DNA of 64,000 bases from a virus (IMGVR_UViG_2878930440_000003); one strand, 5' to 3'. Shown: positions 14,773 to 52,096, counted from the first letter of the stretch. The notes: a model not told the origin generated them from the sequence alone. Numbers and translations: made by a program.

Positions 14773-15147
14773 TTAGTTACCATACTTGTAATGCAAATAA
14801 TTAGCCTCTGAGCCGAAATAAAGCTCGGTATCGCTCATATTTGCCTCCGTCAAGTCATTCTCTACATCTTTATAAGAAGGCACGCAATCCTTAACTCTTT
14901 GGCAGAACAAAGGATATTTTGAAGAAACGTCTTCTCCGTCTTCATCATAGATATTAATCTTATCTACATTGTAATATGGATAAGAAGAAATATTCCCATC
15001 TGAATGGATAACCTTTCTACTCTTAACGGACACCACGATTTCAGCAGGTTTGTTAATAGCATCAAACTCGCAAGTAAAATCATCAAGCTGCGCCTCAAAA
15101 GCCGCATCATTAATATTTTCAGATAAGTTTTCAAAAAACTTTTTCAT
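14773..15147 (-). CDS. hypothetical acidic protein
   Basis: 124-aa ORF directly downstream of the promoter/leader repeat copy A. Confidence 0.45.
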   Translation of the reverse strand: MKKFFENLSENINDAAFEAQLDDFTCEFDAINKPAEIVVSVKSRKVIHSDGNISSYPYYNVDKINIYDEDGEDVSSKYPLFCQRVKDCVPSYKDVENDLTEANMSDTELYFGSEANYLHYKYGN

Positions 15148-15157
15148 TTTCTTCTTA

Positions 15158-15262
15158 CAGTTTTTATGGTGTGTCTCACCTTTTAAATTAGTAACCTTTA
15201 TTTCTTAATTACGATGCAAAGATACAAAGAATATTTGAAACATGCAAATTATTTAATGTATA
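15158..15262 (-). repeat. promoter-plus-leader repeat, copy A (about 105 bp)
   Basis: Near-identical to 36601-36703. Contains a TTTG-N20-TAtcTTTG promoter (15217-15248) and a leader hairpin GGTG-AGACA-CACC. Confidence 0.6.
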
Positions 15263-37223: not shown

Positions 37224-38150
37224 TTAAATCAAACCTCGTTCCTTGAACTCATTCATCAATGGGGTTGCCAAGACCTCAATATCTGGATGAGGCTTTCCAG
37301 TAGTTCCTTTTGATCGCAAATCGAAGAAATGAAGCCAATCACTCACGAATGCGGTATGAATCAACTCCGTGTTGGTATCAAGAGGAAGAACAGTTCTCGC
37401 ATCTTGTGGCTTTAAACCATCATCCTTAACCAAAGACAAATACATCATTTCACATACTCTATTGGCAAACCACCATTTTTCTACCGGACTCCAATGCTCA
37501 TAACTACCGATGTTCTTTGATAGGTCAACAAATGTTCCACCATCAAAAGACGATGGATTAACCGCATCATCTTCACCAACCCACTTTGGTTTGTTGATAG
37601 CAATCTCGCCTCCGAACTTATCCTTACTATAGTTGCAATATCTAGTGCTTTGTTCCGCTACGGAATCTACACGATGTCTGTTAGCCTCTCTACTTACCGC
37701 AATCTGAGTAGTAAAGCGGACGGTTATTCGCTTCTCATGCCATTCCGTAGGCTCGCAGATATAGTCCAAATCCTCAAACCAATTATTTTCAACTATCACT
37801 CTGTAGTTGGTTGTGATATAGTAATCGTTACCTATCTGCATCACCTTTGAATATTTGTTCTCACGATAGTGCTTGACCAATAAAGACTCCGGCACAAAAA
37901 ATCCTTCTTCATAGGCTACATGGAGGTAAATCGTTCCATGCTCACACATGGCAAGATGGTTGCTGCTTACCATACGCTCAACGAAAGGCTTTGCACTGTC
38001 TTTGTCTATCTTCATACTTGACGCATAGCAAGTGCGACCGCATAACTCTATCTGCTTGTAAACTCCATCCATACCCTCACCTTGGGATAGGATTTCATAT
38101 TTTGGTTCTAATATCTTCATGTCCTTATAAGTTTTGAAATTCGACCACAA
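37224..38150 (-). CDS. thyX: flavin-dependent thymidylate synthase ThyX
   Basis: ThyX signature RHRVDSVAEQSTRY (RHR-x7-S). Confidence 0.75.
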   Translation of the reverse strand: MWSNFKTYKDMKILEPKYEILSQGEGMDGVYKQIELCGRTCYASSMKIDKDSAKPFVERMVSSNHLAMCEHGTIYLHVAYEEGFFVPESLLVKHYRENKYSKVMQIGNDYYITTNYRVIVENNWFEDLDYICEPTEWHEKRITVRFTTQIAVSREANRHRVDSVAEQSTRYCNYSKDKFGGEIAINKPKWVGEDDAVNPSSFDGGTFVDLSKNIGSYEHWSPVEKWWFANRVCEMMYLSLVKDDGLKPQDARTVLPLDTNTELIHTAFVSDWLHFFDLRSKGTTGKPHPDIEVLATPLMNEFKERGLI

Positions 38151-38641: not shown

Positions 38642-38977
38642 TTAAGCAACTCTAATCAAGTTGTAGTTCTTGAATTGTCTCCACTCGCCCTTGACTTCAT
38701 CCCAATACTTTGTGCAGTCCTTGCAAGCGTAACCCTTGCCGTTAGTAGTGTAGTCAATATGACTCTCCATCAAAGTGCCGAAAGCCTGACGAATCTCACC
38801 ATTCATCTTCTGAAAGTAGAACTCAACAACCTGCTTCTTCATGCGAGCCTTCAGCTTGATTACCTGCCAAGCTTGCTTCAAGCATTCTGCCCAACTCATA
38901 TAAGCACCTTTAAGCTGAAAGGCTCTGTGTGCCATATTCATCACTTCTCTCATCATATTCTTAAATGTAGTAGCCAT
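38642..38977 (-). CDS. DUF2693-like (SH3 beta-barrel) protein
   Basis: ...EFYFQKMNGEIRQAFGTL...KYWDEVKGEWRQFKNYNLIRVA; paralog of 51189..51527. Confidence 0.45.
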   Translation of the reverse strand: MATTFKNMMREVMNMAHRAFQLKGAYMSWAECLKQAWQVIKLKARMKKQVVEFYFQKMNGEIRQAFGTLMESHIDYTTNGKGYACKDCTKYWDEVKGEWRQFKNYNLIRVA

Positions 38978-39011
38978 AATCTTTCAATTTTAAACGTTAA
39001 ACTTAAATTAC

Positions 39012-39194
39012 TTACTTTGCAAGTCCGATGCTCTCACGCAAGAAGCTCTTAGCCTCATCGTTGTTCATATTGAGCTTTATTGTTATCATATTCAACATTC
39101 TATCAACGTCCTTTTGGGTGTTTATCCTGTTGCTTACGAACTCTATCATAACGAACTTCTGAATCAAGTTTCTTCTTATCATTGAAGTAGTCAT
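39012..39194 (-). CDS. hypothetical small protein
   Basis: 60 aa; starts MTTSM like the 51189..51527 paralog and is preceded by the same palindromic leader. Confidence 0.35.
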   Translation of the reverse strand: MTTSMIRRNLIQKFVMIEFVSNRINTQKDVDRMLNMITIKLNMNNDEAKSFLRESIGLAK

Positions 39195-39203
39195 ATTGCT
39201 ATA

Positions 39204-39226
39204 CCGTTTTACGAGTGCCGACTCGG
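39204..39226 (-). promoter_or_regulatory. conserved palindromic leader element (copy 1)
   Basis: ccgttttaCGAGTgccgACTCGg, 10-32 nt upstream of the ATG at 39194; an identical 23-mer occurs at 51537-51559. Confidence 0.5.
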
Positions 39227-39285
39227 AGGTGCAACCTCAGCTAAATTAATAATGTTATTGTGACCTTTGTTTCTTAATCACGATG

Positions 39286-39317
39286 CAAAGGTAACGTATT
39301 TACGTTATACTACCAAA
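39286..39317 (-). promoter_or_regulatory. Bacteroidetes sigma-A type promoter
   Basis: Minus sense TTTG-N20-TAccTTTG; the spacer contains the palindrome TAACGTA-TT-TACGTTA. Confidence 0.5.
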
Positions 39318-39470
39318 TATTTTATAAAGAAAATATAACGTATTTAGGTTAATTAACAGATATTCATTTGTAACGTACTATTCTTTAAACTTCGTTAATA
39401 CTTTTACGTATATATGCTACATTTTAAATATTATTCTTATCTTTGCAAGAAAATATCAATGTAACGTATT
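39291..39470. promoter_or_regulatory. cluster of GTAACGTAYT operator-like repeats in the divergent intergenic region
   Basis: Copies at 39291-39300, 39336-39345, 39370-39379, 39404-39413 (variant) and 39461-39470; the first lies in a 16-bp palindrome. Confidence 0.45.
39438..39445 (+). promoter_or_regulatory. candidate -7 element (TAtcTTTG) for the HTH regulator gene
   Basis: Plus-strand TTATCTTTG 33 nt upstream of the ATG at 39478; no clean -33 TTTG. Confidence 0.3.
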
Positions 39471-39477
39471 ATGTATT

Positions 39478-39780
39478 ATGAGATTTAAAGATGTTCTTAA
39501 TAAATATGGTGTAACGCAACAAGACTTAGCAGACCGGATGGGTATGAATAGAGTTTCGGTTTCTCGTTTACTTAGCGAGAAAAACGACTTGCGTATATCA
39601 ACTATCGAAAAAATAGCAAACGCTATAGGCTGTCCTGTAGCAGAATTGTTTGATAAGCAGAACAAAGTAGATGCTATGAGTGATTTCATCGCCCTAATAA
39701 AGCAAGGTGGTGAGTTGTATTCCGCATCATCCATCACTGAGGCTAGGGACGTGCTGGACAAGCTGGAAAGTGTTAAGTAA
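39478..39780 (+). CDS. HTH transcriptional regulator (XRE/Cro-CI-like)
   Basis: GVTQQDLADRMGMNRVSVSRLLSEKNDLRISTIEKIANAIGCPVAELF helix-turn-helix pattern. Confidence 0.6.
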   Translation: MRFKDVLNKYGVTQQDLADRMGMNRVSVSRLLSEKNDLRISTIEKIANAIGCPVAELFDKQNKVDAMSDFIALIKQGGELYSASSITEARDVLDKLESVK

Positions 39781-39828
39781 CGTAAGGAACATTCCTTGCA
39801 AGTATTAATAATTAAAACTTTTACGACT

Positions 39829-40269
39829 ATGACAGATTTTTTCAATTTGAGAGGTGCAGCGGTATTCCGTGTTCTCTCGTTAATTAGTGTAATAGCACTA
39901 GGGTTAACTATCTTATTGTTTGTCATCGGCTTGATGATGGGCTTCTTTGGAGAGCAGGAGACGAAGGCGATAGGATGGGCAATGGTTGGATTCTCAATCT
40001 CTTCCTTTTTCTCTTGCCTATTCATGTTCGGCTTCTGCTACCTGATTAAGATAGCTAAGTCTTACGACAAGGATGAGCAAGAGGACAACAAGGAAATAGT
40101 ATTCCAATACAAGGGCTACAAAGGCACTTTCACAAAGGATGACAATACTGGAAGGTTTGATGGCCACATCATCGGGACAAGCTATTCCTACTCTGGCTAC
40201 AGCCTTTCTGAGACAGAACTTGCATTTCAAGCGAGAGTTGACGAATTACTGGAAGAAAAGAAACTATAA
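39829..40269 (+). CDS. small two-TM membrane protein
   Basis: Probable start MTDFFNL inside the 39796..40269 ORF; two hydrophobic helices (VFRVLSLISVIALGLTILLFVIGLMMGFF and AMVGFSISSFFSCLFMFGFCYLI). Confidence 0.4.
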   Translation: MTDFFNLRGAAVFRVLSLISVIALGLTILLFVIGLMMGFFGEQETKAIGWAMVGFSISSFFSCLFMFGFCYLIKIAKSYDKDEQEDNKEIVFQYKGYKGTFTKDDNTGRFDGHIIGTSYSYSGYSLSETELAFQARVDELLEEKKL

Positions 40270-40307
40270 AAAGAAAGAGGAGCGCATCAGACGTTCCTCT
40301 TCTTTGT

Positions 40308-43300
40308 TTACAATCTACTCATCTTATCTTTCAATTCGTGTATATCATTGAATGCTTGCAACATAGGCTTATGCCATCGCTCTTGTCTCTCATCAATCGA
40401 CTGCAAGTACATCAAGCTTTGTGCAAGGATAGTCCTACCCTCATCAACAGCTAACCAAATGTTACCTACATTACCCATAATAGTATTCACGCTAGCTGTT
40501 AGTAAGCTACCCTCTGCGCCACCATCACGAGCCGCAATAGCATCCAACTTGGTATTTATGAGTTTTGTTTCCTCATACGTTCCCTCCGTAGCGATCTGCA
40601 CCGCTGTAAAACGACCATTCAACTCATCGCCTGTGTCTTGACTCATTGATTCAAAAGAACCGGAAGAAGCGGACTGCTCGTAAGATTGCTTGTAACCCGT
40701 AATTTCGGCTACTTCATCTCTAATCTTCAGTCCTTCTTGAACCATTTCATCATACTTTCCCTTCAAGGCAGTTATATCTGTCTTTGACAATTTACCACCA
40801 TTTGCCTCAGCTCGTTCCGCCCATTCGTCATAGAATGCTTGCATATCATTTCCCAACAAATCATCCACCTTAGCTTTCAGAACGGCTTGCATAAGCATCT
40901 TGGAGAAATTATCAGAGAAGTCTTGAGCAGAGGAATTCATATCCATCAAAGTATCTATGAACTCGCTCTTCAAACTATCAAAAGATATTTGCGTCAAGCT
41001 TTCTGCAAGGTCATCAGCAATTTCCTCTAATGTTCCAGCCTCAGCCGCATAGTCTTTCAACTTTTCAAGAACTCTACCTCCATAGCCACCCTTACCTGTA
41101 TTCTTGATAGCCTCAACCATATCTGGATTCTGCAAAATGGCAGCTGCTTCATCAGCAGATTGCAAGTCGTTAAGATTACCATTCCATTGTCTGCCTATTG
41201 CTTCGGACACCTTTTTGATTTGCTCTTGCGAAAATCCTCGAAAATAAGCGTTAAAACTGTGATGAGAGCCATGATAACCCATTTGCGCCTCCATGATACT
41301 CTTTAAATTTTGTTCTTTCTCCTTTTGGAGGTTTTCGGCTTTTTTAGCGTCCTCTACGGCTTTAATACCACTATTCTTGTCTATGGAGTCTCGTAACTTG
41401 TCTATAGCATCCGTCAAGATTTCATTTCTATCCGTCAATTTATCTATAGTCCGGTTTACTTCTTTTGCGTTCCCACCAACTCCAAACAAACTATTGAATC
41501 CACCAAACGATATTGTATTGAGAATATTACCAATGCCGCTTACCAAAGACCCTCCAATCTGAGTTATAAAATCGCCACTTAGAATATTCTTTAATATGCC
41601 GTTGACCGCATTCAGAACTGTATCAATCAAGCTACTAATCAATGTTCCAATACCATCTTTCAAAACATCAAGTATCTTCAAGATGGCAGATACGATTTGA
41701 CCTATTAATCCAGCTTTTGACAATCCTTCACTTAGCGCATCACCAGCTTTCTTGCCAGCGGCTGCGGCTGCGTCTGCGGCTGCCTTACCCATATCCTTCA
41801 AACCATCAGCCGCATTCTTAGCCTCGTCCAAAGCTTTCAATCCATCAATTCCACCTTTAAGCTGATCGAAGCTATCCCAAAGAGATGCTAAATCAGATAG
41901 TCCAGAAGTAGAAAGGAACTCATGGATAGCAGAAATCGGTTGCGTCACATTCTGTGTCGTTTGAGCCAACTTCTGACCACTAGTACGGACTTTTGTGTTA
42001 GCCGTAACAATCTTCTTTCCGGACTCCGCTAACTGACCTTGTACTTTATTCAAATCATTTTGCAATCTAGCTTGCTCTGCGACATTGCCCGACTTTTTCG
42101 CATTCGCTATCTGATTTTGCAAATCCTTAATGCGAGGTGTAAGCTTGGTTTCTGTTTCAGTATATTCCTCTTGGGCAATTTTCGCATTCTTCAGAGCCTC
42201 CTGATAAGCTACAACGTCCCTTGCAAGGTCTTTCCAACCCAAATCACTTGTATTACCAATCGAATTACGGATATTCTGCATAGCATCAACTATACTCTTC
42301 TGCTGGTCTGCACCCAAATTTTGGAACTTATCCGTACCTACGAATTTATCCAGATCTGCCAATAAAGGAACAAGCGCATCTTTCATAATTCCACCAACAT
42401 TTCCGAAGACTTGATACCAGTCTATCTTCTGCATAATAGCACTAGTCTCAACCGAATCCGTCTCTTTCTTCTGCTCTTCTTTCAAAGATTTTATCTTCCA
42501 TTGCTTGTTTGAGTCCGAATCCGTAGAGTTTTCAACCTCGCTAATCCTCTTAGCATAATCGGCAGCAATAGCTAACTTCTGCTCTTGGAATGTACCATAA
42601 GTCTTCAGATAATCGTACATGCTTTGCGCTTCTTTAGCAAGCACATCCTCATTCTGCTTTACAGCCTTATCCCGAATTGCATTCATCTGATTAGCAACGT
42701 TCATGCCTATGGTCAACTCCATGCCATTTACCTTAACCGGATTACCCTTGCTGTCCTTCATGGTTTCATTCAAAACCTCATTCTTGTACTCTTCATCGGT
42801 TTTGCTCTGTTTCCACATATTAGCCTTACGACCTTTGCCGGAATTAACCCAAACAGCTTGGTCACGCTTTTTCCTAGCCTCAACCAATTTGTCTATACCA
42901 TCTTCTACCGCTTTTTTCTCCTTGTCGGCATTCTCGGTAATCTGAGCCAATTCCTTGCTATAACCCTCATTCATCGCATTAATGCGGTTCTTGGTCATGT
43001 CTTGGATAGCTTTCTCCGAATAGGAAGAAATAGACTTGGCATAGTCCTCCTCAGCCTTGCGCTTATTACCAGCCTTTGTCTCGGCATCATTCCTAGCCTT
43101 TTCAGCATCCCTAGCCGCTTTCTCTCTTGCCTTCCTCTCCTTATCTATCTCCTTTTGGCTTTTCTTCGGCTTACTTTCGATGTTGTTACCTCTTGCTTGC
43201 ATCATAGCCAATTCGTTTGCGACCTGTTCGTAAGTCTTATATTGACCTCCAACTTGAAGAACATCCCCTTTTTTGTGTCCGTCAAGCCAGTTCTTTCTCA

Positions 43301-46300
43301 CAGCCATACTCGCTTTCAACTGAGACTGAGACATATTCTTAATCCATGCAGGAAGCTCACTATCATCATAGTTAACCTTAATATCAAGATGTAACTTTCT
43401 ACTGCACAACTTTATTGTCTCTTGGATTTCACTATTCAAATCCTTGAAGCTCTTCTTTGCATATTGATTTTTCAAAGCTTGTTCCTCTTGCGCATAAGTC
43501 AACTTAGATGTGGCTTTTCTCGCACGTTCTGCGGCATTGACGCTATTATTTATAGAATCAACCGTACCATCCAACTCAACTTTGTTGCTAACAAGCCCAT
43601 CAGTAAAGTCGTTTATATCAGGAATCATCTGAGCCACCTCAGAACGGCTATGGTGCATATTTTCGAGATAAGTTCCTATTTTTACATTCAACTCCCCTTG
43701 TAATTGGGAATATTGAGCATTCAATGCGTTGTACACCTTTAAATCTCCACCACAAGCATTCATCTCCTTTCGCAGTTCAGCTAACTTGTCTATGTCATCC
43801 TGACTTACGAGACTTCGAATAGTACCCATTTCTACATCAGACAACTTATCATCTATAGAATCTTTAAATGAGCTGAAAGATGAATCATTTGAAGAATTAT
43901 AATTATCATAAGCCTCTTGTAATTGATTTGCACGCTCCATTTCAAGAGAACGCTTTTCAATTATACCGATAAGTTCTTCTTCATGCTCCTTTAACTCATT
44001 AGCTTGCTCACTCATGCTTTGAGACTTCATTTTAGTCTCATCCAATTTTACCCCATATTCTTCATAAGCAGACTTCAATTCATTTATTGTGTTCTTATGG
44101 TCTTCTGCCTCGCCATTTTCCAAAACCGCAAACAAGGAACGAACCTTATTACTAGCCTCAGCAGCCTTATTACCCATGTTTTGAGTCTTCTTAGCAACAT
44201 CTTCCTCGTCACTTCCGAACATCGCAAAAACGGACATTGCGGTTGTTACCAGAGTAATGATAGTAGTTAGAGGATTTGCAAGCATTGCAGCCCATAGCTC
44301 CCTCATACTAACGGTAACGGCATTAGTAGCCCATGTTAACACATTTTGAGCTAATGCTAACCCTTTTGTGCCAACAGATAATATAGAGGTAACAAGGGAA
44401 TTCCGTTCCTTTGCTCCTGTATTTACGTTCTCGGACGTTGTATTTACATTAGTAGCCGCAGTATTAGCTGTCTTTGAAGTCGAGTTTGCCGTATTAGCAA
44501 TAGTTTCCGAAGAAGTAGCATTTGCATTAGTACTTTTTGCGGTTGCATTGCTAGCTTCAGAAGTAGTATTGGTTTGTGTAGCAGTAGTTGCCGCCTCCGT
44601 AATGCTAATCTTACCATCCTCTATATCTATTCCTTGCTGAACAATATCCCCAATTTCATCTGCCGCTGCTCCTGTCTCTTTATAGACCTCGGTTTCATTC
44701 TCTTCGGCTTCTGTCAACTTCTCAGTCGTAGTCTGAAGTTCCTGTTGGATAGCCTTACGCTTTGCGTTAGAACTTTCGTATTCCTCATCCGCTTGCTGAC
44801 GCTTTTGCATCAGCTCTTCCAATTTCGCTTGTTCTGCCCCGTATTGAACTATTGAACTATTTTCGTTATCCGAAAAAGAATCCGCATAGCCACCAAATGA
44901 AGTCGTATCAACCGCCCCATTATCATAGACCAATTCCTTTTCTTTCTGTTCTATGATTTGCTGCTGCTTTTTTATTTCCTCATCAAGTTGAGCAAGGACT
45001 ATTCTCTTTTCACGAGCCTCATCCATCGCTTTATCGTAACTCTCTTGCTGCAAGTCTACTTTCTTCTGTAAGGCGTTAGTTTCCAATAGAGCCTTACCAT
45101 AAGCGGTTTCATTTGCCTTGGCTATTTTTTGTTTAAGGGCAGCCTCAGCCTTTGCTTGTTCCGCAGCCTTATTTGCAGCAGCGATGTCGTCTTCTTGCGA
45201 TTTTTTTGCACGCAACTCTTCTTCTGCGGCTTCTTTGGCGTTTACCGCATTTTGCCATTGGAGTTGTTCTTTCTCCGCAAGTCTTGTCTGCTCAACCAAG
45301 AGGTCACGCTTCAACTGGAGTTGTTTAGCCATTTCTTCGCTAATCAACCCCTCAGATTTCGCTAATTCTATCTGCTTAGATATGCGTTTCTCCGTTTCAT
45401 CATCACCGATATTTTCGGTATCGGACAAAGCATTCCCCAACTCATTATAACGGCTTGCCTTATAATCTTTGGTATCTTTTCCGTTAAGATGTCGGTAATC
45501 ATTTTCCATTTCCTTGAACTGAGCCATTTTCTCATCAAGTCCCTTGGAAAGTTCCAAAGCCTCCATCTGTTCTTTAGCAGCAGATTGTTGCTGAGTGACA
45601 AGCATATCACGTTTAAGTTGCAATTGCTCTGCCATTTGTTGGGTTATGATTCCATCGGTCTGAGCCTCTTTGATTTTAAGAGACACAAGTTCCTCGGCCT
45701 TATCCGTACCCAACATATCAGTATTAGAAACAGCCTTATTCAAATCCGAAAGTCTTTGGCTCTTATATTCGGATGTATCTTTTCCGGTGTAGGAATGATA
45801 CAATTCAGCTTCATCTTTGTACGCTTTTATCTTTTCGTCAAGATTACTTGCAATACTATCAAGTGTAGCTTTGTTTTGAGCTTTTTGGATGGATGCTGCC
45901 GCCATCAGACCTGCCTTATACGTGCCTACGGCTACCGCAGCCGAACCAATAACTTTAACGACCGTCTCCCAATTGTCAACCAAAGACGAAATCAAGTCTA
46001 AACCAGTGCCAAATATTCCTTGCGACTTCTTGCCGAGTTCGTTAAACATCTGGTCAACGCTATCGCCAATGTTAGACCATTTTCCTTGCAAGGTTGTGGA
46101 TTGCTTTTCCATCAGTCCACCAAACTTGCCGCCCTCTTCGGTCATGTTGATGATAGCTTTTTTCACCAAATCAGCTCCGACCTTTCCATCTGTAACCGCT
46201 TGCTGAACCTCTTGGGTTGTCTTGCCCATGATTTTACCAAGCTCCTCAGCCATCGGGATGCCTCTGCCCATAAACTGACGCAAGTCCATCGTGTACATGC

Positions 46301-47282
46301 GGCCTTGGCTCATTGTTGTACCATACAAATACACCAAATCGTTCAACGGAACGTTCAGACCTGCCGAAATATCTCCAAGATGAACAAGAATATCATTAAC
46401 CTCATTTGCAGCCGTACCATAAGCCAACAACTGCTTTGCCCCATTTGTTATCGAACTCATGTCGAAAGGAGTCTTCGCAGCCGTTTGAACAAGTTGGTTC
46501 ATCAATGCTCCTGCTCTCTGCTCACTACCAAGCATTGTAGTGAATGAAATTTCAAGCTGTTGGAATTGTGAACGAACATTAAAGATGTGTTCTGCCAATT
46601 GTTCAAACCCCAGGCCACCTACGAGGCTCATTGCTAATTGCTTTGCATCACCACCGAGACGATTAAATAAAGATGTTGCACCCTCACCGACAGTAGGAAC
46701 TTTCTTCATTTCCTCAATCATTCCGGCAAAGGCATCAGTCATCACCTTTACGTTATCAGTAGTTGCGCTCGAAGAACCCGAATAGCGGACATACTCTGCT
46801 TGCATGTTTTGCAATTCGATTCTTGCCTGCTTACCTAATCCGGTTAGATTCTCATAACGCCTTTTCTCATCATTGAGTATAGTGGAATTTTCGCTTATAT
46901 CACGATTAAGGATTGTTGAAGTGCCAATATCTAAGCCTCCTTTACGAAGTTTAGACTGCATCTTTGCAATCTCAGAAGAAAGTCTTTCAATCTTTCGCTT
47001 AGATGCGTCTGCTTGCAGCTCGAAAGAATAAACCTCTCTTGTAAGATTCTGCATTTTCTTGGCATAATCACTACTCATCACCAAAGCATAGCGAGACATT
47101 GCGGAACTAAGCTCTGTCACCTTTTGCTTTTGCTCTGCATATTTGTCAGTAAGGTCCTGAACCACCGCCTTATCTGTCGCCTTTGTTGTTTTCTGTAACT
47201 CACCACGCAATCTTTCAAGCTCTTGCTTGGCTTGCTTGATTTGGTCGAAATTCGCTTTGATGTTAAATTCTAGCTGTGCCAT
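40308..47282 (-). CDS. tail tape measure protein (2324 aa)
   Basis: N-terminal TP901-type core (QLAMSLVGGLGFEQLAEH...TAAKTPFDMSSITNGAKQLLAYG...). Also has extensive coiled coil, a Thr/Asn/Ala low-complexity segment and hydrophobic helices (LANPLTTIITLVTTAMSVFAMFG). Confidence 0.65.
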   Translation of the reverse strand: MAQLEFNIKANFDQIKQAKQELERLRGELQKTTKATDKAVVQDLTDKYAEQKQKVTELSSAMSRYALVMSSDYAKKMQNLTREVYSFELQADASKRKIERLSSEIAKMQSKLRKGGLDIGTSTILNRDISENSTILNDEKRRYENLTGLGKQARIELQNMQAEYVRYSGSSSATTDNVKVMTDAFAGMIEEMKKVPTVGEGATSLFNRLGGDAKQLAMSLVGGLGFEQLAEHIFNVRSQFQQLEISFTTMLGSEQRAGALMNQLVQTAAKTPFDMSSITNGAKQLLAYGTAANEVNDILVHLGDISAGLNVPLNDLVYLYGTTMSQGRMYTMDLRQFMGRGIPMAEELGKIMGKTTQEVQQAVTDGKVGADLVKKAIINMTEEGGKFGGLMEKQSTTLQGKWSNIGDSVDQMFNELGKKSQGIFGTGLDLISSLVDNWETVVKVIGSAAVAVGTYKAGLMAAASIQKAQNKATLDSIASNLDEKIKAYKDEAELYHSYTGKDTSEYKSQRLSDLNKAVSNTDMLGTDKAEELVSLKIKEAQTDGIITQQMAEQLQLKRDMLVTQQQSAAKEQMEALELSKGLDEKMAQFKEMENDYRHLNGKDTKDYKASRYNELGNALSDTENIGDDETEKRISKQIELAKSEGLISEEMAKQLQLKRDLLVEQTRLAEKEQLQWQNAVNAKEAAEEELRAKKSQEDDIAAANKAAEQAKAEAALKQKIAKANETAYGKALLETNALQKKVDLQQESYDKAMDEAREKRIVLAQLDEEIKKQQQIIEQKEKELVYDNGAVDTTSFGGYADSFSDNENSSIVQYGAEQAKLEELMQKRQQADEEYESSNAKRKAIQQELQTTTEKLTEAEENETEVYKETGAAADEIGDIVQQGIDIEDGKISITEAATTATQTNTTSEASNATAKSTNANATSSETIANTANSTSKTANTAATNVNTTSENVNTGAKERNSLVTSILSVGTKGLALAQNVLTWATNAVTVSMRELWAAMLANPLTTIITLVTTAMSVFAMFGSDEEDVAKKTQNMGNKAAEASNKVRSLFAVLENGEAEDHKNTINELKSAYEEYGVKLDETKMKSQSMSEQANELKEHEEELIGIIEKRSLEMERANQLQEAYDNYNSSNDSSFSSFKDSIDDKLSDVEMGTIRSLVSQDDIDKLAELRKEMNACGGDLKVYNALNAQYSQLQGELNVKIGTYLENMHHSRSEVAQMIPDINDFTDGLVSNKVELDGTVDSINNSVNAAERARKATSKLTYAQEEQALKNQYAKKSFKDLNSEIQETIKLCSRKLHLDIKVNYDDSELPAWIKNMSQSQLKASMAVRKNWLDGHKKGDVLQVGGQYKTYEQVANELAMMQARGNNIESKPKKSQKEIDKERKAREKAARDAEKARNDAETKAGNKRKAEEDYAKSISSYSEKAIQDMTKNRINAMNEGYSKELAQITENADKEKKAVEDGIDKLVEARKKRDQAVWVNSGKGRKANMWKQSKTDEEYKNEVLNETMKDSKGNPVKVNGMELTIGMNVANQMNAIRDKAVKQNEDVLAKEAQSMYDYLKTYGTFQEQKLAIAADYAKRISEVENSTDSDSNKQWKIKSLKEEQKKETDSVETSAIMQKIDWYQVFGNVGGIMKDALVPLLADLDKFVGTDKFQNLGADQQKSIVDAMQNIRNSIGNTSDLGWKDLARDVVAYQEALKNAKIAQEEYTETETKLTPRIKDLQNQIANAKKSGNVAEQARLQNDLNKVQGQLAESGKKIVTANTKVRTSGQKLAQTTQNVTQPISAIHEFLSTSGLSDLASLWDSFDQLKGGIDGLKALDEAKNAADGLKDMGKAAADAAAAAGKKAGDALSEGLSKAGLIGQIVSAILKILDVLKDGIGTLISSLIDTVLNAVNGILKNILSGDFITQIGGSLVSGIGNILNTISFGGFNSLFGVGGNAKEVNRTIDKLTDRNEILTDAIDKLRDSIDKNSGIKAVEDAKKAENLQKEKEQNLKSIMEAQMGYHGSHHSFNAYFRGFSQEQIKKVSEAIGRQWNGNLNDLQSADEAAAILQNPDMVEAIKNTGKGGYGGRVLEKLKDYAAEAGTLEEIADDLAESLTQISFDSLKSEFIDTLMDMNSSAQDFSDNFSKMLMQAVLKAKVDDLLGNDMQAFYDEWAERAEANGGKLSKTDITALKGKYDEMVQEGLKIRDEVAEITGYKQSYEQSASSGSFESMSQDTGDELNGRFTAVQIATEGTYEETKLINTKLDAIAARDGGAEGSLLTASVNTIMGNVGNIWLAVDEGRTILAQSLMYLQSIDERQERWHKPMLQAFNDIHELKDKMSRL

Positions 47283-47494
47283 CCTTATATGTTTTTATTG
47301 GCAAAATTAGCTAATATTCGAAGGAATAGCGAAAGAATTAATGTATGCTATTTCACAAAAGATTTAAGTGCAAAGATTAAGACTGGGTACAAAAAAAGCC
47401 TTCCACACTCTCATGCGGAAGGCTCAATTCTTACTTGTTTTCTTCTATATATAATGACAATCAATTCACAACAGCCTGTATTTTCGTTGAAATT

Positions 47495-48058
47495 TTACCA
47501 TTCATCAGACTTTGACTTTACAAAAGAACTTTTTAAAATATCATTTAAAATATAATTGACACGGTCATTAATTGCATTATATAAACGTTCTTTCTTCGGA
47601 TTCAACTTTCCATTCTTAAAGTAGTTACTACAGTCTCCGGCAAAACTACTAGGTAATTCCGTTGGAGCACCAGTTATAACTTTATTGACCACTGGTGCGT
47701 TAACACGAAACTTTCCATCTTTGAAATTAAATGAATAGGTGCAAATCATATGCTTTCTAAGAGGAAGCCCCATTACTTTCTCATAATAAGCATCAGTAAT
47801 AAATACGTTCAATGTAACTTGCTCGTTTCCAAATTTTGTAATCTCATTTGTCTTAGAAGTATATTTTCTATCCAAATACGAAGATACGGCACGAAACAAA
47901 CTATCCTGCGAATAACCATCCATAGGAATAACAACAAATTCCTTTTCGTCATCAGTTACAAACTTAAAGTTCGAATTAAAGTGAAACTTTACATCTTGCG
48001 CCATTAATGATAACGTAACAAACATCATCATCAATGCCATTAACAAAAACTTCTTCAT
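47495..48058 (-). CDS. secreted protein with signal peptide
   Basis: MKKFLLMALMMMFVTLSLMAQD signal peptide. Confidence 0.45.
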   Translation of the reverse strand: MKKFLLMALMMMFVTLSLMAQDVKFHFNSNFKFVTDDEKEFVVIPMDGYSQDSLFRAVSSYLDRKYTSKTNEITKFGNEQVTLNVFITDAYYEKVMGLPLRKHMICTYSFNFKDGKFRVNAPVVNKVITGAPTELPSSFAGDCSNYFKNGKLNPKKERLYNAINDRVNYILNDILKSSFVKSKSDEW

Positions 48059-48173
48059 ATTCTAAACATTTAATAATATATTTACATTTACTACTTATCT
48101 AACCCATAGGAGAACAAAGACTTTTGCGCTAATTTTCAAAGACTTGTATTTTTATTACAAAAGTATTGTTATT

Positions 48174-48578
48174 TTACATTTCGGCTTCATTATACTCATA
48201 ATCCCAGAGGAACAACTTGCCTTTGACGTTTCTAATCGGCTCATCGAACAATTTAGCATTCTTCAAGAACCAATGATATTGGAAATCTTCAGCAAATGCA
48301 TCCGGATAAGCCTCTTGATACTGAATATCATCCAACTCTACGCTGCCGATAATGGCTGACGTTGGCAAGTCTTTAAAGTCCGGAATAAAAATACCATGCT
48401 CTTGGCAATATTTCTTCATTGCGCTCTCCTGCCATCCGTCAAGCTTTTCGGGTTTGGCTTGGCTTGCATGGATAAGGAAACGGCCACGGAATTTTCTATT
48501 CCATGTTCTGTTTTCAATGGTCTTGCAGCCGATAGCGATTAACCAAGCATACGGCTGGCGAATTGATAATACTTTCAT
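48174..48578 (-). CDS. ASCH domain protein
   Basis: MKVLSIRQPYAWLIAIGCKTIENRTW...FLIHAS matches the ASCH/PUA-like N-terminal pattern. Confidence 0.5.
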   Translation of the reverse strand: MKVLSIRQPYAWLIAIGCKTIENRTWNRKFRGRFLIHASQAKPEKLDGWQESAMKKYCQEHGIFIPDFKDLPTSAIIGSVELDDIQYQEAYPDAFAEDFQYHWFLKNAKLFDEPIRNVKGKLFLWDYEYNEAEM

Positions 48579-48606
48579 AAGCTCATTGTTTTATTATTTG
48601 CATCCG

Positions 48607-48638
48607 CAAAGGTAACAAAAACCTTCGAGAAATGCAAG
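48607..48638 (-). promoter_or_regulatory. Bacteroidetes sigma-A type promoter
   Basis: Minus sense TTG-N20-TAccTTTG upstream of the ASCH gene. Confidence 0.5.
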
Positions 48639-48873
48639 GAAACTCTAATTTATTTTCATGTTTTCTAAAAATAATCTTGAAATAATTTGCATATTTCAAA
48701 TATTTTTCGTATCTTTGCTGTGTAATCAATGAGAGATTGCAAAGGAGATGCCGAAAACCTGAAAGAGTAGGTAAAATGAAATCCCAAAGCCGCATGAGAC
48801 TGTATATTTCAATTCGGATTTGGAAAATCAAAGTTGCTCTTACAATTGAATTGTAAAGCTTAGATTTCCAACA

Positions 48874-48902
48874 GGGAGGTGGTGTTCTCACCACCGCCTC
48901 CC
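48874..48902. terminator. GC-rich bulged hairpin
   Basis: GGGAGGTGGTG-ttct-CACCACC(gcc)TCCC. Confidence 0.4.
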
Positions 48903-48961
48903 ACCTTGGGATTTCGTTGCAAAGGTACGAAATTTATTTCAAACCACCAAATTTTTAACGT

Positions 48962-49150
48962 ATGGGCACAAATGAAGAAAAGACAACCAAGTCATGGGGA
49001 GGTGCAAGAGAAGGCTGTGGACGCAAGAAGAAATGCGCTAAACGTATGTTCTTTTCAGCCACAGAAGAAACACTTGACATCCTCAATTCCTTAGACGGAA
49101 ACAAGAGTGACTTCATCAACGAATGCATCCTAAAGGCGGTAAGAGGTTAG
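48962..49150 (+). CDS. ribbon-helix-helix (CopG/Arc-like) small DNA-binding protein (tentative)
   Basis: KRMFFSATEETLDILNSL...KSDFINECILKAV: a beta-strand then two helices. Confidence 0.35.
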   Translation: MGTNEEKTTKSWGGAREGCGRKKKCAKRMFFSATEETLDILNSLDGNKSDFINECILKAVRG

Positions 49151-49431
49151 ATCCTCTTCCGTCTTTTCTTTCTGATTCTGTCCCAATCCGGTTTAAGCAC
49201 ATCCATCGTGCCGACCATTGCCTTGTACTTGTCGCCAAGTTCGCCCTCGTTCATAGATGAACGGAAAGTGTACATCTTGTATCGTTCATGCTCAGGAACA
49301 TATAATCCCACCATCAAGGAACGGACTCCATCCACCTCCTGCTCCGGTGCTATCAATACAAGCCCCTCGTTCATGCTTTCCAACTTGAAAATCTTTGAGG
49401 AGACAACCTCATAATAGTCTAGTATATTCAT
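49147..49431 (-). CDS. hypothetical protein
   Basis: 94-aa ORF. Confidence 0.4.
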   Translation of the reverse strand: MNILDYYEVVSSKIFKLESMNEGLVLIAPEQEVDGVRSLMVGLYVPEHERYKMYTFRSSMNEGELGDKYKAMVGTMDVLKPDWDRIRKKRRKRI

Positions 49432-49448
49432 ATTCTTGTCTCCTATAA

Positions 49449-49697
49449 TTATTTTGTACGTTCAAACACTTCAATATACTGGATAGAGCTACAATCAATA
49501 TATTTACGTGTAAACACTACTGTACTTCCACTTCCAATCATAAGTGTTCTGTTCTTTGTATTGCAATTGAAAGAGGTTTCACAACCAACACTATTGAAGT
49601 CGAAACTTATTTTTGCTCCACCTACCAAGTTGATATTTCCTCTAAGACCTTTGTCCTCGGCTTCGCCTAATATCACATTCACATGACCTGCATCCAT
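49449..49697 (-). CDS. hypothetical protein
   Basis: 82-aa ORF. Confidence 0.4.
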   Translation of the reverse strand: MDAGHVNVILGEAEDKGLRGNINLVGGAKISFDFNSVGCETSFNCNTKNRTLMIGSGSTVVFTRKYIDCSSIQYIEVFERTK

Positions 49698-49716
49698 ATT
49701 CTTATCTAATCAATTG

Positions 49717-49962
49717 TTAAACACCTTCTCTAATAAAGATACGTATGATAGAGTCACTATCAATGTAATCTCTGTTTCCGTTCTCACCAAGTATAGTTAT
49801 CAAATGCTTTTTTTTGTTATAAAGAACATCGGCAGTAAAATCAAATAACTTTGATTTGCTAAAGTTTGCATGAGTTAACTGCCCATTAGAGAGTGAAATT
49901 CCTGCAATGCAACCGCACTCCTTTGCATCATCTAAGATGTCTTTGATAATCTTAATATCCAT
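49717..49962 (-). CDS. hypothetical protein
   Basis: 81-aa ORF. Confidence 0.4.
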   Translation of the reverse strand: MDIKIIKDILDDAKECGCIAGISLSNGQLTHANFSKSKLFDFTADVLYNKKKHLITILGENGNRDYIDSDSIIRIFIREGV

Positions 49963-49969
49963 AGTCTTA

Positions 49970-50227
49970 TTACTTTACTTCTCGTTCTACAATATCAAAA
50001 TTATCCCACGTCTCTCCTTCGCTGTCTGAGATATGAAAGAAAGAATCTGAGATATTGTATAGATAATCATCGCAATTTAAAACTCGCTTGTAATTCTCCA
50101 AAGTGTTCATTCCTTTGTGTCCTATAGCCTTTCTAGCCTTATCTCTGGTATCGAAGACTTCTGCATCAACCTCAACAGCTTCACCCAATCCGTGTTGGTA
50201 CGAAGAAATTACTACATATACTTTCAT
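49970..50227 (-). CDS. hypothetical protein
   Basis: 85-aa ORF. Confidence 0.4.
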   Translation of the reverse strand: MKVYVVISSYQHGLGEAVEVDAEVFDTRDKARKAIGHKGMNTLENYKRVLNCDDYLYNISDSFFHISDSEGETWDNFDIVEREVK

Positions 50228-50245
50228 AGCTTAAACCTCCTTTTA

Positions 50246-50554
50246 TTACGCTACCTTAGATAACGTTTCTTTATCGATCTCAATCCACTGCGTACCATCC
50301 TTACGAAAGAAGATTTCACTCTTGATACGCTTACCATCCACATCAATGCAATTACCCTTGCAGACAAAGGTGTGGTTCTTTGTCAATGGTACAAGAAGGT
50401 ACGTTTTACCCTCTCTTTTGCGTTCTACAAGCGTTTTGTCCGTCCCAAGGATAATTGATACCCTTTCGTCCTTATCGTCCTTTAGAACACCTATTTTATC
50501 CGTGTGCTCGATATAGAGCACATTCAGAAAATTCTCATCCATTTTCTTATGCAT
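50246..50554 (-). CDS. hypothetical protein
   Basis: 102-aa ORF. Confidence 0.4.
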   Translation of the reverse strand: MHKKMDENFLNVLYIEHTDKIGVLKDDKDERVSIILGTDKTLVERKREGKTYLLVPLTKNHTFVCKGNCIDVDGKRIKSEIFFRKDGTQWIEIDKETLSKVA

Positions 50555-50858
50555 TAATCATTCTGTTATACTTTTTCTTATTAACACCTCGTTTAACGGC
50601 TTCATAGAGCAAAGTCAAAGCTAATGCTTCATCCTTGACTTTCAAAGCCTTCAAGGTATCTCTTTTTACGTTGTAGTTCTCATCGACCTCACACAATGGT
50701 ACGTAGCCTTTGTGCTCGAAATTTCTTCGACCAATCGCCCAAATCTCATAGCCATCCGGAAACTCGTTTGTTGTCTCGAATACATAATTGCCATCATTAA
50801 ACTTTTCCATAATCAATTGTATTAAGTTCTTTACCTTATCTTTTCTTACTCCTCCCAT
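50547..50858 (-). CDS. hypothetical protein
   Basis: 103-aa ORF. Confidence 0.4.
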   Translation of the reverse strand: MGGVRKDKVKNLIQLIMEKFNDGNYVFETTNEFPDGYEIWAIGRRNFEHKGYVPLCEVDENYNVKRDTLKALKVKDEALALTLLYEAVKRGVNKKKYNRMINA

Positions 50859-51094
50859 CGGAAAGCGTTAGGGTCTTTTACGACCTTCTTACTGGCTTCG
50901 TCCCACATGTAACCATCCGTAAACCATTTAGGGGCTTTACCATTGATTACTCGTTTTGCATCGGCTATGCTAGCATAGTCCGGTTCAGCAATATTATCAA
51001 TGCGAACGGATACCTGACCAAATACGTCCTCCACCTTAGTAATATGATGCCCTTTGTAGAACACTTCTTTCAAACACTTAGCGATTGTCTCCAT
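50846..51094 (-). CDS. hypothetical protein
   Basis: 82-aa ORF. Confidence 0.4.
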   Translation of the reverse strand: METIAKCLKEVFYKGHHITKVEDVFGQVSVRIDNIAEPDYASIADAKRVINGKAPKWFTDGYMWDEASKKVVKDPNAFRWEE

Positions 51095-51188
51095 ATCTCA
51101 AATACTTTAAAAGTCCTTAACTAAAGGGGTGATTAAAGGCTCACCCCTATTAAAGCCTCGCCAAACACCTTAGAACGTGTATATATCT

Positions 51189-51527
51189 TTATGCAACTCG
51201 CAAGAAGTTGTAAGCCTTGAATTGTCTCCATGCGCCCTTTTCTTCATCCCAATAGCGGATGCAATCTCTTGATGCTGCATGACCAGTACCATTTGGAGTG
51301 TAGTCAATGTGGCTCTGAAGGAGAGTACCAAAGGCTTGTCTTACCTCACCATTCATCTTCATAAAGAAGAACTCTACTACCTTGGTCTTCATCGCTGCCT
51401 CAAGCTTTACGACCTGCCAAGCCTGTTTCAAGCACTCAACCCAAGACATTGAACTTGATTTCAACTGATAGGCTCTATGTGCCAACTGCATTACCTTTCT
51501 CATCTTGTTCTTAATTGAAGTTGTCAT
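51189..51527 (-). CDS. DUF2693-like (SH3 beta-barrel) protein
   Basis: Paralog of 38642..38977 (...EFFFMKMNGEVRQAFGTL...RYWDEEKGAWRQFKAYNFLRVA). Confidence 0.45.
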   Translation of the reverse strand: MTTSIKNKMRKVMQLAHRAYQLKSSSMSWVECLKQAWQVVKLEAAMKTKVVEFFFMKMNGEVRQAFGTLLQSHIDYTPNGTGHAASRDCIRYWDEEKGAWRQFKAYNFLRVA

Positions 51528-51536
51528 ATCCTCAAA

Positions 51537-51559
51537 CCGTTTTACGAGTGCCGACTCGG
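51537..51559 (-). promoter_or_regulatory. conserved palindromic leader element (copy 2)
   Basis: Identical 23-mer ccgttttaCGAGTgccgACTCGg, 10-32 nt upstream of the ATG at 51527. Confidence 0.5.
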
Positions 51560-51605
51560 CTGCATAACAGCAATTAATAGTTAAACTTTAAAGCCTTTAT
51601 CTCTT

Positions 51606-51637
51606 AAAGACATTGCAAAGATACAAAATATATTCTA
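51606..51637 (-). promoter_or_regulatory. Bacteroidetes sigma-A type promoter
   Basis: Minus sense TTTG-N20-TAtcTTTG. Confidence 0.5.
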
Positions 51638-51764
51638 ACATACCAAATGTTTTGAAAGAAAATGTGAGAATATAAACAATTATTAACTTAGTAACCTCGT
51701 TTAGACTTTATTCTTTACTTTTATTCACATTGTTAGAACTTATCTACACAAAACAAAGAAAATA

Positions 51765-51796
51765 TTTGGTAGTTTCATTTATATTCATTATCTTTG
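51765..51796 (+). promoter_or_regulatory. Bacteroidetes sigma-A type promoter for the HTH regulator
   Basis: Plus sense TTTG-N20-TAtcTTTG, 40 nt upstream of the ATG at 51836. Confidence 0.5.
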
Positions 51797-51835
51797 CACA
51801 CAAAATAAAATCTCACATTATTAAATATAAGAAAT

Positions 51836-52096
51836 ATGGACGTTAAAACAATTATCAAAGAAAAGGGCTTTACTATTGAACAGGTAGCAAAAGAAATGGG
51901 TATCACAAGATTTACTTTTACCCAAAACCTCAGCCGTAACCCTACGATGAGGACATTACAGCGTATTGCCGATGTATTAGGGTGCAAAGTTGGCGACTTC
52001 TTCAAAGACGAAATAGAGCCATCTAAGCCAACATTTGTTTGCCCTCATTGCGGCAAGCCTATCGAGCTGGAGATTAAGGCTAAGGAGGGGAAATGA
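51836..52096 (+). CDS. HTH transcriptional regulator (XRE-like) with C-terminal CxxC pair
   Basis: GFTIEQVAKEMGITRFTFTQNLSRNPTMRTLQRIADVLGCKVGDFF then FVCPHCGKPIE. Confidence 0.55.
   Translation: MDVKTIIKEKGFTIEQVAKEMGITRFTFTQNLSRNPTMRTLQRIADVLGCKVGDFFKDEIEPSKPTFVCPHCGKPIELEIKAKEGK

Follow-up and report, generated by a model that had tools for sequence, protein, structure and literature searches.

Why does one viral stretch carry the same 23-nucleotide (nt) palindrome, letter for letter, shortly before the first start codon of two operons 12 kb apart? The stretch, IMGVR_UViG_2878930440_000003 (64,000 nt, hereafter the window), comes from a gut phage of Bacteroides type and holds exactly two copies of the 23-mer CCGAGUCGGCACUCGUAAAACGG, at 39204-39226 and 51537-51559, both on the minus strand, which is the transcript strand. 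Each copy stops 9 nt before an ATG encoding MTTS..., the first ATG of an operon that bears a WYL_2 gene (the family formerly named DUF2693). When up to three mismatches were allowed, the window gave 2 matches, against 0.00 expected from 100 shuffles. A first-pass annotation had described the same arrangement, with DUF2693-like genes, promoters and divergent helix-turn-helix (HTH) regulators around the identical 23-mer at both loci, and we found every one of these parts in place. Our analysis indicates that the palindrome is a genuine selected hairpin in the transcribed leader, near the translation start. On balance, we favour the explanation that the 23-mer represents the last hairpin (P2) of a modular, structured 5' leader together with its A-run tail, acting in cis as a 5' untranslated region (5'-UTR) element that sets translation or mRNA stability.

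Leader anatomy at the two loci

The two loci contain the following features, in window coordinates.

Locus 1
38642-38977, minus strand: WYL_2 gene W1, 111 amino acids (aa), second cistron (Pfam match)
39012-39194, minus strand: o60, a conserved 60-aa open reading frame (ORF), first cistron, function unknown
39204-39226, minus strand: 23-mer copy 1, made up of the final C of P1, then P2 (39212-39225, CGAGU-CGGC-ACUCG), then the tail UAAAACGG (39204-39211)
39226-39238, minus strand: hairpin P1, A type, GAGGU-UGC-ACCUC, directly abutting P2
39260-39281, minus strand: P0 box at the transcript start, GUGA-UUAAGAAACAAAGG-UCAC, with a conserved A-rich loop; a 5'-terminal hairpin is possible
39286-39317, minus strand: Bacteroidota promoter of the o60/WYL_2 operon (-33 TTTG at 39314-39317, 20 nt, -7 TACCTTTG at 39286-39293)
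39478-39780, plus strand: HTH1, 100 aa, divergent regulator of XRE/Cro-C1 type (HTH_3/HTH_26 match; HTH cluster 0)

Locus 2
51189-51527, minus strand: WYL_2 gene W2, 112 aa, first cistron (Pfam match)
51537-51559, minus strand: 23-mer copy 2, made up of the final base of P1, then P2 (51545-51558), then the tail UAAAACGG (51537-51544)
51559-51571, minus strand: hairpin P1 of B type, GCUGU-UAU-GCAGC, closed by a U·G pair
51593-51611, minus strand: P0, B type, GUCUUUA-AGAGA-UAAAGGC, the transcript-start box
51616-51647, minus strand: Bacteroidota promoter of the W2 operon (-33 TTTG at 51644-51647, 20 nt, -7 TATCTTTG at 51616-51623)
51836-52096, plus strand: HTH2, 86 aa, divergent, of HTH_26 type with a Cys-rich C-terminus (HTH_3/HTH_26 match; HTH cluster 7)

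Reading along the transcript, the order is -7 box, P0, a linker AUUAAUU, P1, P2 abutting P1, UAAAAC-N-GU, 9-12 nt, and AUG. We gathered ~460 WYL_2 or o60 genes by protein similarity, the motif itself not being used as query, and this order was present in every first-cistron WYL_2 or o60 case of the lineage. The extra 60-aa ORF that the first-pass annotation saw at the MTTS start of locus 1 is indeed there: o60 takes that start and W1 comes after it. It is kept in dozens of relatives, with a diverged homologue in the distant genome L202.

Outside the 23-mer, the leaders of locus 1 and locus 2 are essentially unalignable, and an alignment of the WYL_2 coding DNA shows many substitutions; a simple recent duplication therefore does not account for 23 nt of perfect identity. 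The P0 element has the conserved loop UUAAGAAACAA(AGG), which in the B type reads AAGAGAUAA. A single consensus hairpin was tried for P0 and rejected, because its arms lie in different registers among types, and we therefore describe it as a conserved box with type-specific hairpin potential.

Membership of W1 and W2 in Pfam WYL_2 (PF10902) was asked over the full 74-position profile. The two proteins scored 64.1 and 64.3 bits (E ~1e-17; gathering cut-off 26.7 bits), covering positions 1-74 and 2-74. They are 69% identical to each other and both fall in PHROG 1086, of unknown function. The alignment of WYL_2 proteins contains many invariant basic and aromatic residues.

Covariation identifies the hairpins as RNA

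From a MAFFT alignment of 30 distinct leader cores, RNAalifold recovered both P1 and P2 de novo. Counting pairs in the leader cores, 95.7% of the cells were paired versus 83.3% in shuffles, and double changes occurred at four pairs of P1 and P2. The covariation score was 0.347 versus 0.128; it was reached by 0/500 shuffles, and slid registers all scored far lower. The third pair of P2 occurs as A-U, as U-A (L097, L323) and as G-C (L202). The arms of P1 occur as GCUGY/RCAGC, GAGGY/RCCUC and CUCGN/NCGGG, and its innermost pair as C-G, U·G or U-A. Both the G·U pairs and the A-run exist on the coding (mRNA) strand only. Since the changes are compensatory and the G·U pairs lie on the transcribed strand, the element acts as RNA; since the variable spacer of 9-12 nt between the 23-mer and the ATG preserves no reading frame, it is not coding. 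An RNA hairpin was one of the two roles that the first-pass annotation had offered for the palindrome, and this half of its proposal is upheld.

More distant WYL_2 genes carry other stems at the same place: GGUG-AGACA-CACC (L202), GGUG-GGGCA-CACC (L206), AGUG-AGACA-CACU (L200) and GCGUC-N10-GACGC (L195 and L199). Each of these is followed by an A-run. A search of IMG/VR with the covariation probe CCGBGTNNNNACNCGTAAAAC gave 14 matches, all in unrelated coding contexts, and was uninformative.

Position relative to the translation start

P2 ends at about -18 to -20 from the start codon, where the tract on which the ribosome lands begins on its 5' side. The tail A-run that follows spans -16 to -13 in class 1, the class of the 23-mer, or -18 to -13 in a second class described below; it covers -14 and -13, not -12 and -11. 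Among 95 minus-strand ORFs of the window, A is enriched at -14 to -12 (0.59-0.62, versus a background of 0.34). This is the A-rich motif that Baez et al. 2019 (PMC6847099) describe for start sites of Bacteroidia: initiation is promoted by its adenines (-14 to -11), of which A-12 and A-13 matter most, and the motif lies near ribosomal protein S1. Bacteroidia do not use Shine-Dalgarno sequences. The palindrome had been placed at the ribosome-binding region by the first-pass annotation. It does lie near the start codon, but it does not cover the ribosome-binding tract: it ends at ~-18, and only the A-run tail overlaps.

The distance from P2 to the AUG is conserved, whereas that from promoter to AUG varies from 65 to 97 nt. 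At the start of W1, behind o60, an A-run (UAAAAUUG) is found at the same distance without a hairpin.

Class-2 elements before unrelated genes

A covariance model built from the leader alignment, together with a pattern search and a generic scan, revealed a second class of P2, with the form NGUG-AGACA-CACN + UAAAA. It precedes three unrelated genes of the window, all on the minus strand.

36592-36700, minus strand: class-2 promoter-leader cassette (-7 box 36660-36667, P0, P2 GGUG-AGACA-CACC at 36611-36623, gUAAAAA), before a 73-aa ORF at 36370-36591
36306-36324, minus strand: intercistronic class-2 P2 (36312-36324), CGUG-AGACA-CACG + UAAAAC; the ATG of a 27-codon ORF (36210-36293) follows 13 nt downstream
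15148-15260, minus strand: class-2 cassette, a near-copy of 36592-36700 (-7 box 15217-15224, P2 GGUG-AGACA-CACC at 15168-15180, aUAAAAA), before an ORF at 14773-15147

A P2-only MAFFT alignment of both classes was not structure-consistent, as their loop lengths differ, and the classes were compared by listing their stems. The first and third of these features form a duplicated promoter-P0-P2 unit of ~110 nt, 21 kb apart, in front of unrelated genes; neither has a P1 or a divergent HTH gene. In relatives, the class-2 cassette is found before at least 5 unrelated genes. The window contains four promoters with a P0 box, which are exactly the four that carry a P2, and TTTG, 20 nt, TA(C/T)CTTTG was found at 4/4 of these leader-bearing promoters. 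The primary-sigma promoter consensus of Bacteroidota is a -33 TTTG and a -7 TAnnTTTG. Since both 23-mer leaders follow promoters of this type, we assign the host to the Bacteroidota.

Sites of the form 'GC hairpin + UAAAA' in the 64-kb window are on the coding strand in 5/5 cases, and in 5/5 an ATG lies 12-14 nt after the UAAAA. Shuffled windows contained an average of 0.4 such sites and a maximum of 3 (100 shuffles). Because the copy at 36306-36324 is intercistronic, the hairpin is tied to the start codon and not to the promoter; because class-2 P2 precedes unrelated genes, the hairpin is an element found close to the start site in several transcription units, with no restriction to WYL_2. 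The proposal of two parallel switch modules particular to WYL_2 therefore does not hold, given that the same kind of hairpin and UAAAA stands before three unrelated genes.

The A-type P1 arms (39226-39238, minus strand; GAGGU/ACCUC, then C) resemble a Shine-Dalgarno core paired to an anti-Shine-Dalgarno mimic, and the class-2 P2 arms GGUG/CACC (36611-36623, minus strand) are similar in this respect. Such a resemblance is odd for a phylum in which ribosomes take no account of Shine-Dalgarno sequences, and it is probably a coincidence, since neither B-type P1 nor class-1 P2 shows it.

The spread of the element bears directly on whether WYL_2 is its ligand. According to this alternative, the leader is a translational operator: WYL_2, made from the first cistron, would bind P1-P2, and perhaps all P2-UAAAA sites, and repress translation of its own mRNA and of further early messages, a feedback like that of T4 RegA or gp32. 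Every first-cistron WYL_2 or o60-WYL_2 unit of the lineage has P1-P2 (~380 instances), P1 is confined to the o60/WYL_2 leaders and missing from the class-2 cassettes before other genes, and both paralogues of one genome have identical P2 and tail, all as an operator of this kind would have it. The protein would also be a suitable one, with its Sm-like SH3 barrel and the invariant basic and aromatic residues; members of the WYL superfamily are predicted to bind ligands or nucleic acids and have an Sm-like fold (PMC4012209). Still, P2-UAAAA precedes unrelated genes as well, the L202 genome has two different P2 classes, P1 is conserved as structure and not as sequence, and distant WYL_2 genes lack the hairpin, including that of the Bacteroides phage BS-TP2, which keeps the HTH/WYL_2 pair. 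Nor did protein structure lend help: the AlphaFold model of W2 was too poor for a fold search (predicted local distance difference test score 58.7), and a PDB profile search for WYL_2 gave no credible relative (best E = 0.022). We thus regard a WYL_2 operator as unlikely.

The positions given above also bear on processive antitermination of the nut/put type, in which the P0 box and hairpins would load a factor on RNA polymerase or act on the polymerase themselves, so that terminators are read through. The leaders resemble lambda nutL/nutR and HK022 putL/putR in several points: a genome holds a near-identical pair of copies, both in leaders of early-type operons behind repressor-controlled promoters, and each joins a conserved linear box to a small 5-bp hairpin with a conserved loop, or to hairpins in tandem. 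The tandem hairpins of HK022 put abut, as P1 and P2 do. What differs here is the fixed spacing to the start codon, with a promoter spacing that varies over 65-97 nt, and the one intercistronic copy. A simple and crude terminator scan found sites only at the ends of the W2 and HTH1 operons, and none inside operons.

47396-47425, minus strand: strong intrinsic-terminator-like hairpin (13 bp, then TTTTTGT) at the end of the W2 operon, preceding a 2324-aa tape-measure-like gene
40275-40301, plus strand: terminator-like site at the end of the HTH1 operon

The lambda-type boxA CGCUCUUA was not found in either leader as read, the conserved box being UUAAGAAACAAAGG. No N-like or Q-like protein was identified, with no systematic search made for N-like candidates. 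Taken together, these observations make antitermination improbable.

Divergent HTH genes and their candidate operators

The second role offered for the palindrome was that of a protein operator for the divergent HTH regulators. HTH1 and HTH2 gave no alignment in BLASTP, and each locus has repeats of its own at the promoter; in the locus-2 intergenic region these include ATATTCTAACAT/ATGTGAGAATAT.

39292-39351: locus-1-specific palindromic repeats TAACGTATTTACGTTA, two copies, overlapping the promoter, with further half-sites up to 39472; candidate HTH1 operators
51629-51674: locus-2-specific inverted repeat TATATTCTAACAT / ATGTGAGAATATA, with related copies at 51800-51823; candidate HTH2 operator

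Our survey covered 360 related leaders whose divergent ORF could be recognised; the ORFs form 19 clusters, less than 60% identical to each other, and the exact 23-mer stands beside at least 15 of them. With ~60 nt separating it from the -7 box upstream, the 23-mer falls outside the promoter. An HTH operator would be a promoter site varying with its cognate repressor, and the 23-mer is not such a site. As an operator of the adjacent HTH it was consequently rejected, on the grounds that the HTH proteins are unalike, that one and the same 23-mer adjoins so many clusters, and that the promoter palindromes are locus-specific. The leader element is thus independent of the HTH gene, as it is of the gene downstream.

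Spread and mosaicism of the leader

The exact 23-mer was found in at least 114 IMG/VR stretches, and the close relatives of the window are uncultured human-gut phage contigs of 65-135 kb. Among relatives, the types of P0, P1, P2 and first gene combine freely, and promoters, leader parts and first genes occur in many combinations, as expected from the suggestion of the first-pass annotation that the module was acquired by recombination. The leader is, in this sense, portable. Mosaic breakpoints fall at short conserved blocks, namely the -7 box, the AUUAAUU linker and the 23-mer; the breakpoint between the 'immunity' part and the leader is the -7 box. Recombination has also reached the proteins: the WYL_2 proteins P0004, P0005 and P0018 (alignment A2) are recombinant mosaics, one with a W2-type N-terminal half and a W1-type C-terminal half, another the reverse.

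In 12 related loci the two 23-mer copies are inverted and ~5 kb apart. In many relatives, the two HTH/WYL_2 modules are convergent and lie only ~5 kb apart (L028, L030, L044, L047, L049, L060, L062, L070, L090, L096, L099 and L101). The window has them in tandem instead, separated by 12.3 kb that include the tape-measure-like gene. From this difference, it appears that large rearrangements have occurred around the modules.

Such observations could be taken to mean that the 23-mer works as DNA, either as an operator for a DNA-binding protein or as a crossover point at which a site-specific recombinase or invertase would reassort promoters and genes. Its perfect dyad symmetry, its location exactly at mosaic junctions and the inverted copies ~5 kb apart in the 12 loci would all fit. 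Reciprocal products, however, are nearly missing: among 126 junctions, none joined an A-type leader to W2 and just one joined a B-type leader to o60. The window copies are direct, and recombination between them would delete 12 kb including the tape-measure-like gene. Further, the same sequence lies beside at least 15 HTH families and ~60 nt past the -7 box, and the G·U pairs, like the UAAAAC tail, exist on one strand only. An invertible segment or shufflon was rejected, because reciprocal junctions are absent bar one among the 126 and the window copies are direct; a DNA-level site of any kind we hold to be very improbable.

It could also be that the element has no function of its own and that its identity is a by-product of gene conversion or recombination between paralogous modules. 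Recombination among the modules is rampant, even within WYL_2 genes, and most copies are literally identical. On the other hand, the sequence immediately flanking the 23-mer is unalignable between the two leader types, variants keep their pairing through compensatory changes, and divergent classes keep the geometry of hairpin, tail and AUG. A mere by-product is accordingly hard to credit, and we think it improbable as well.

Conservation of the palindrome in homologous loci, on which the first-pass annotation had staked its proposal, extends to the first-cistron WYL_2/o60 leaders of the lineage and stops short of the WYL_2 genes of BS-TP2, L204 and L205. Because these distant WYL_2 genes do without the hairpin, the element is lineage-restricted and dispensable for WYL_2 expression as such. 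BS-TP2 (L367; PQ571275, gp61/gp62) is a cultured B. salyersiae phage that keeps the divergent HTH/WYL_2 pair; its WYL_2 protein is 44% identical, its leader is short and unstructured, and a HigB/XRE toxin-antitoxin pair adjoins the module. Viral scans with the divergent WYL_2 proteins P0010 and P0023 found only the same W1/W2 phage group, the genome scan giving 4 loci. In a search of GenBank phages, the only entries with the leaders were human-faecal contigs lacking annotation; none of the cultured, annotated phages carried them.

Other features of the operons and their relatives

Nearly all genes of the window are on the minus strand. The W2 operon spans from 51527 down to 47495. The 2324-aa ORF between both loci is tape-measure-like, its homologues carrying Pfam TMP_3. 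The last gene of the locus-1 operon (37224-38150, minus strand) matches thymidylate-synthase PHROGs (phrog_85, E = 1e-20), from which it appears that this operon carries nucleotide-metabolism cargo. Five tRNA genes are clustered at 30542-30976 on the minus strand.

In distant relatives, a c4-2 RNA (RF02944, a family of P1-type immunity antisense RNAs) lies upstream of pRha/Bro-N/KilA-N + ANT antirepressor genes, adjoining the HTH/WYL_2 module (L195 1297-1370, L197 342-415, L199 738-811). At gathering score, the window gave no c4-2 match. In several relatives, IS605-family OrfB/TnpB (Cas12f-like) genes have been inserted, downstream of WYL_2, into the operons of small genes (L197 3301-4548, L199 4048-5244, L214 1922-3055).

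Comparison with known elements

An Rfam 15 scan of the whole window at gathering score gave no family at the leaders, and a scan of both leaders at E<=10 gave no match. In 14 related loci, Rfam identified tRNAs, c4-2 and DUF805b only; at gathering score, RF02926 was found neither there nor in the window. A literature search, from which the supplements of Weinberg 2017 fell outside, found no paper containing the hairpin sequences. The leader motif is well conserved, apparently undescribed, and of an ordinary kind: a small cis-acting 5'-UTR RNA motif. It sits within a case of phage module mosaicism that is likewise ordinary, though well resolved.

The nearest relatives in kind are DUF2693-FD (RF02926) and DUF805b (RF02914), from Weinberg et al. 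2017, which like the leader are small structured start-proximal motifs of gut Bacteroidales or their phages; comparative genomics revealed them, and they are candidate cis-regulatory motifs. DUF2693-FD is named for the protein family encoded here (DUF2693 is WYL_2) and is described as a central loop with a stem and two hairpins arranged about it (PMC9756865). The RF02926 model nevertheless has no match, and the outer stem that a three-way junction would need is not conserved in the leaders. DUF805b does occur in the window (48741-48773, plus strand, 39.6 bits), as a hairpin-plus-tail element that stops 3 nt before the AUG of a 26-codon basic ORF (48777-48857), although its consensus and loops are unlike those of the leaders. 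Its presence shows that start-proximal motifs are recurrent in these phages. The motif is driven by a plus-strand promoter (TTTG, 20 nt, TATCTTTG) at 48686-48717, which lies inside the W2 operon, itself on the minus strand, and is nearly the same as the promoters of the class-2 cassettes. After the 26-codon ORF come a GC-rich hairpin and a 62-aa ORF (48962-49150, plus strand).

The leader of E. coli ompA has a 5'-terminal hairpin, a single-stranded segment and a second hairpin beside the ribosome-binding site. The order seen here, of P0, an AU-rich linker and one or two hairpins abutting the ribosome-binding tract, is the same. T4 RegA sites, the MS2 coat-protein hairpin and ompA are likewise comparable in having a hairpin at a fixed distance from the start codon. 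They differ from our case in that a Bacteroidota host initiates without Shine-Dalgarno pairing, the 'ribosome-binding site' being the A-run at ~-17 to -13. The mosaic immunity regions of lambdoid phages are similar as well, with many hetero-immune HTH/operator sets joined to a common downstream leader by short-block breakpoints; here a WYL_2 protein stands where those phages have cro, and what is conserved at the junction is a structured RNA.

A model for the leader and its significance

In the explanation that we favour, of a 5'-UTR element acting in cis, the host-type promoters (-33/-7 of Bacteroidota) would transcribe the leader of early units that depend on the host polymerase. P0 would be a possible 5'-terminal protective hairpin, and P2 would act in cis by bordering, as a structured element, the site where the ribosome lands. 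Its possible actions are insulation or presentation of the A-rich tract, docking on the 30S platform and protection of the mRNA, singly or together; P2 would thereby set how well the first cistron of early transcription units is translated and how stable it is. The HTH repressors would act separately, on the locus-specific promoter palindromes. The two copies would be identical because both WYL_2 operons carry one leader cassette, exchanged among phages by recombination at short conserved blocks.

Several observations weigh against this explanation. An effect of the leader on translation or stability is something we infer from leader anatomy alone. The thermodynamic stability of the stems, which are short, is unremarkable (z -0.2 to -0.5 versus shuffles); as these z-scores are not significant, the structural case rests on covariation. 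The independent covariation events are few, the leader types being few and spread by recombination, and within the main class only one pair of P2 varies. The hairpins of P0 share no common register across types, and the hairpin is absent at distant WYL_2 genes. Finally, a purely structural role leaves the conserved sequence of the loop, 3' arm and tail unexplained. The conserved G-R-C-A-C of the loop and 3' arm, with UAAAAC, suggests at the sequence level that a common trans-acting factor may recognise the leader.

WYL_2 itself may be proposed as such a factor: the WYL_2 proteins of gut Bacteroidales phages would then be RNA-binding regulators that recognise P(1)-P2-UAAAAC and carry out a RegA-like shut-off of early mRNAs. 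We consider this proposal doubtful. If true, the portable promoter-leader cassette would be the regulon tag of WYL_2 at start sites without Shine-Dalgarno sequences.

The phages concerned are abundant in human gut metagenomes, as the recurrence of the exact 23-mer in IMG/VR indicates. The candidate operators, now set apart from the shared RNA element, should be useful for dissecting the many hetero-immune HTH modules. For annotation, the motif marks the heads of early transcription units, and it explains where the mosaic breakpoints are located. The promoter-leader cassettes are natural portable expression parts and possible genetic tools for Bacteroides. More broadly, a covarying 5'-UTR motif next to the A-rich start determinant bears on how translation is initiated and regulated in Bacteroidia without Shine-Dalgarno sequences.

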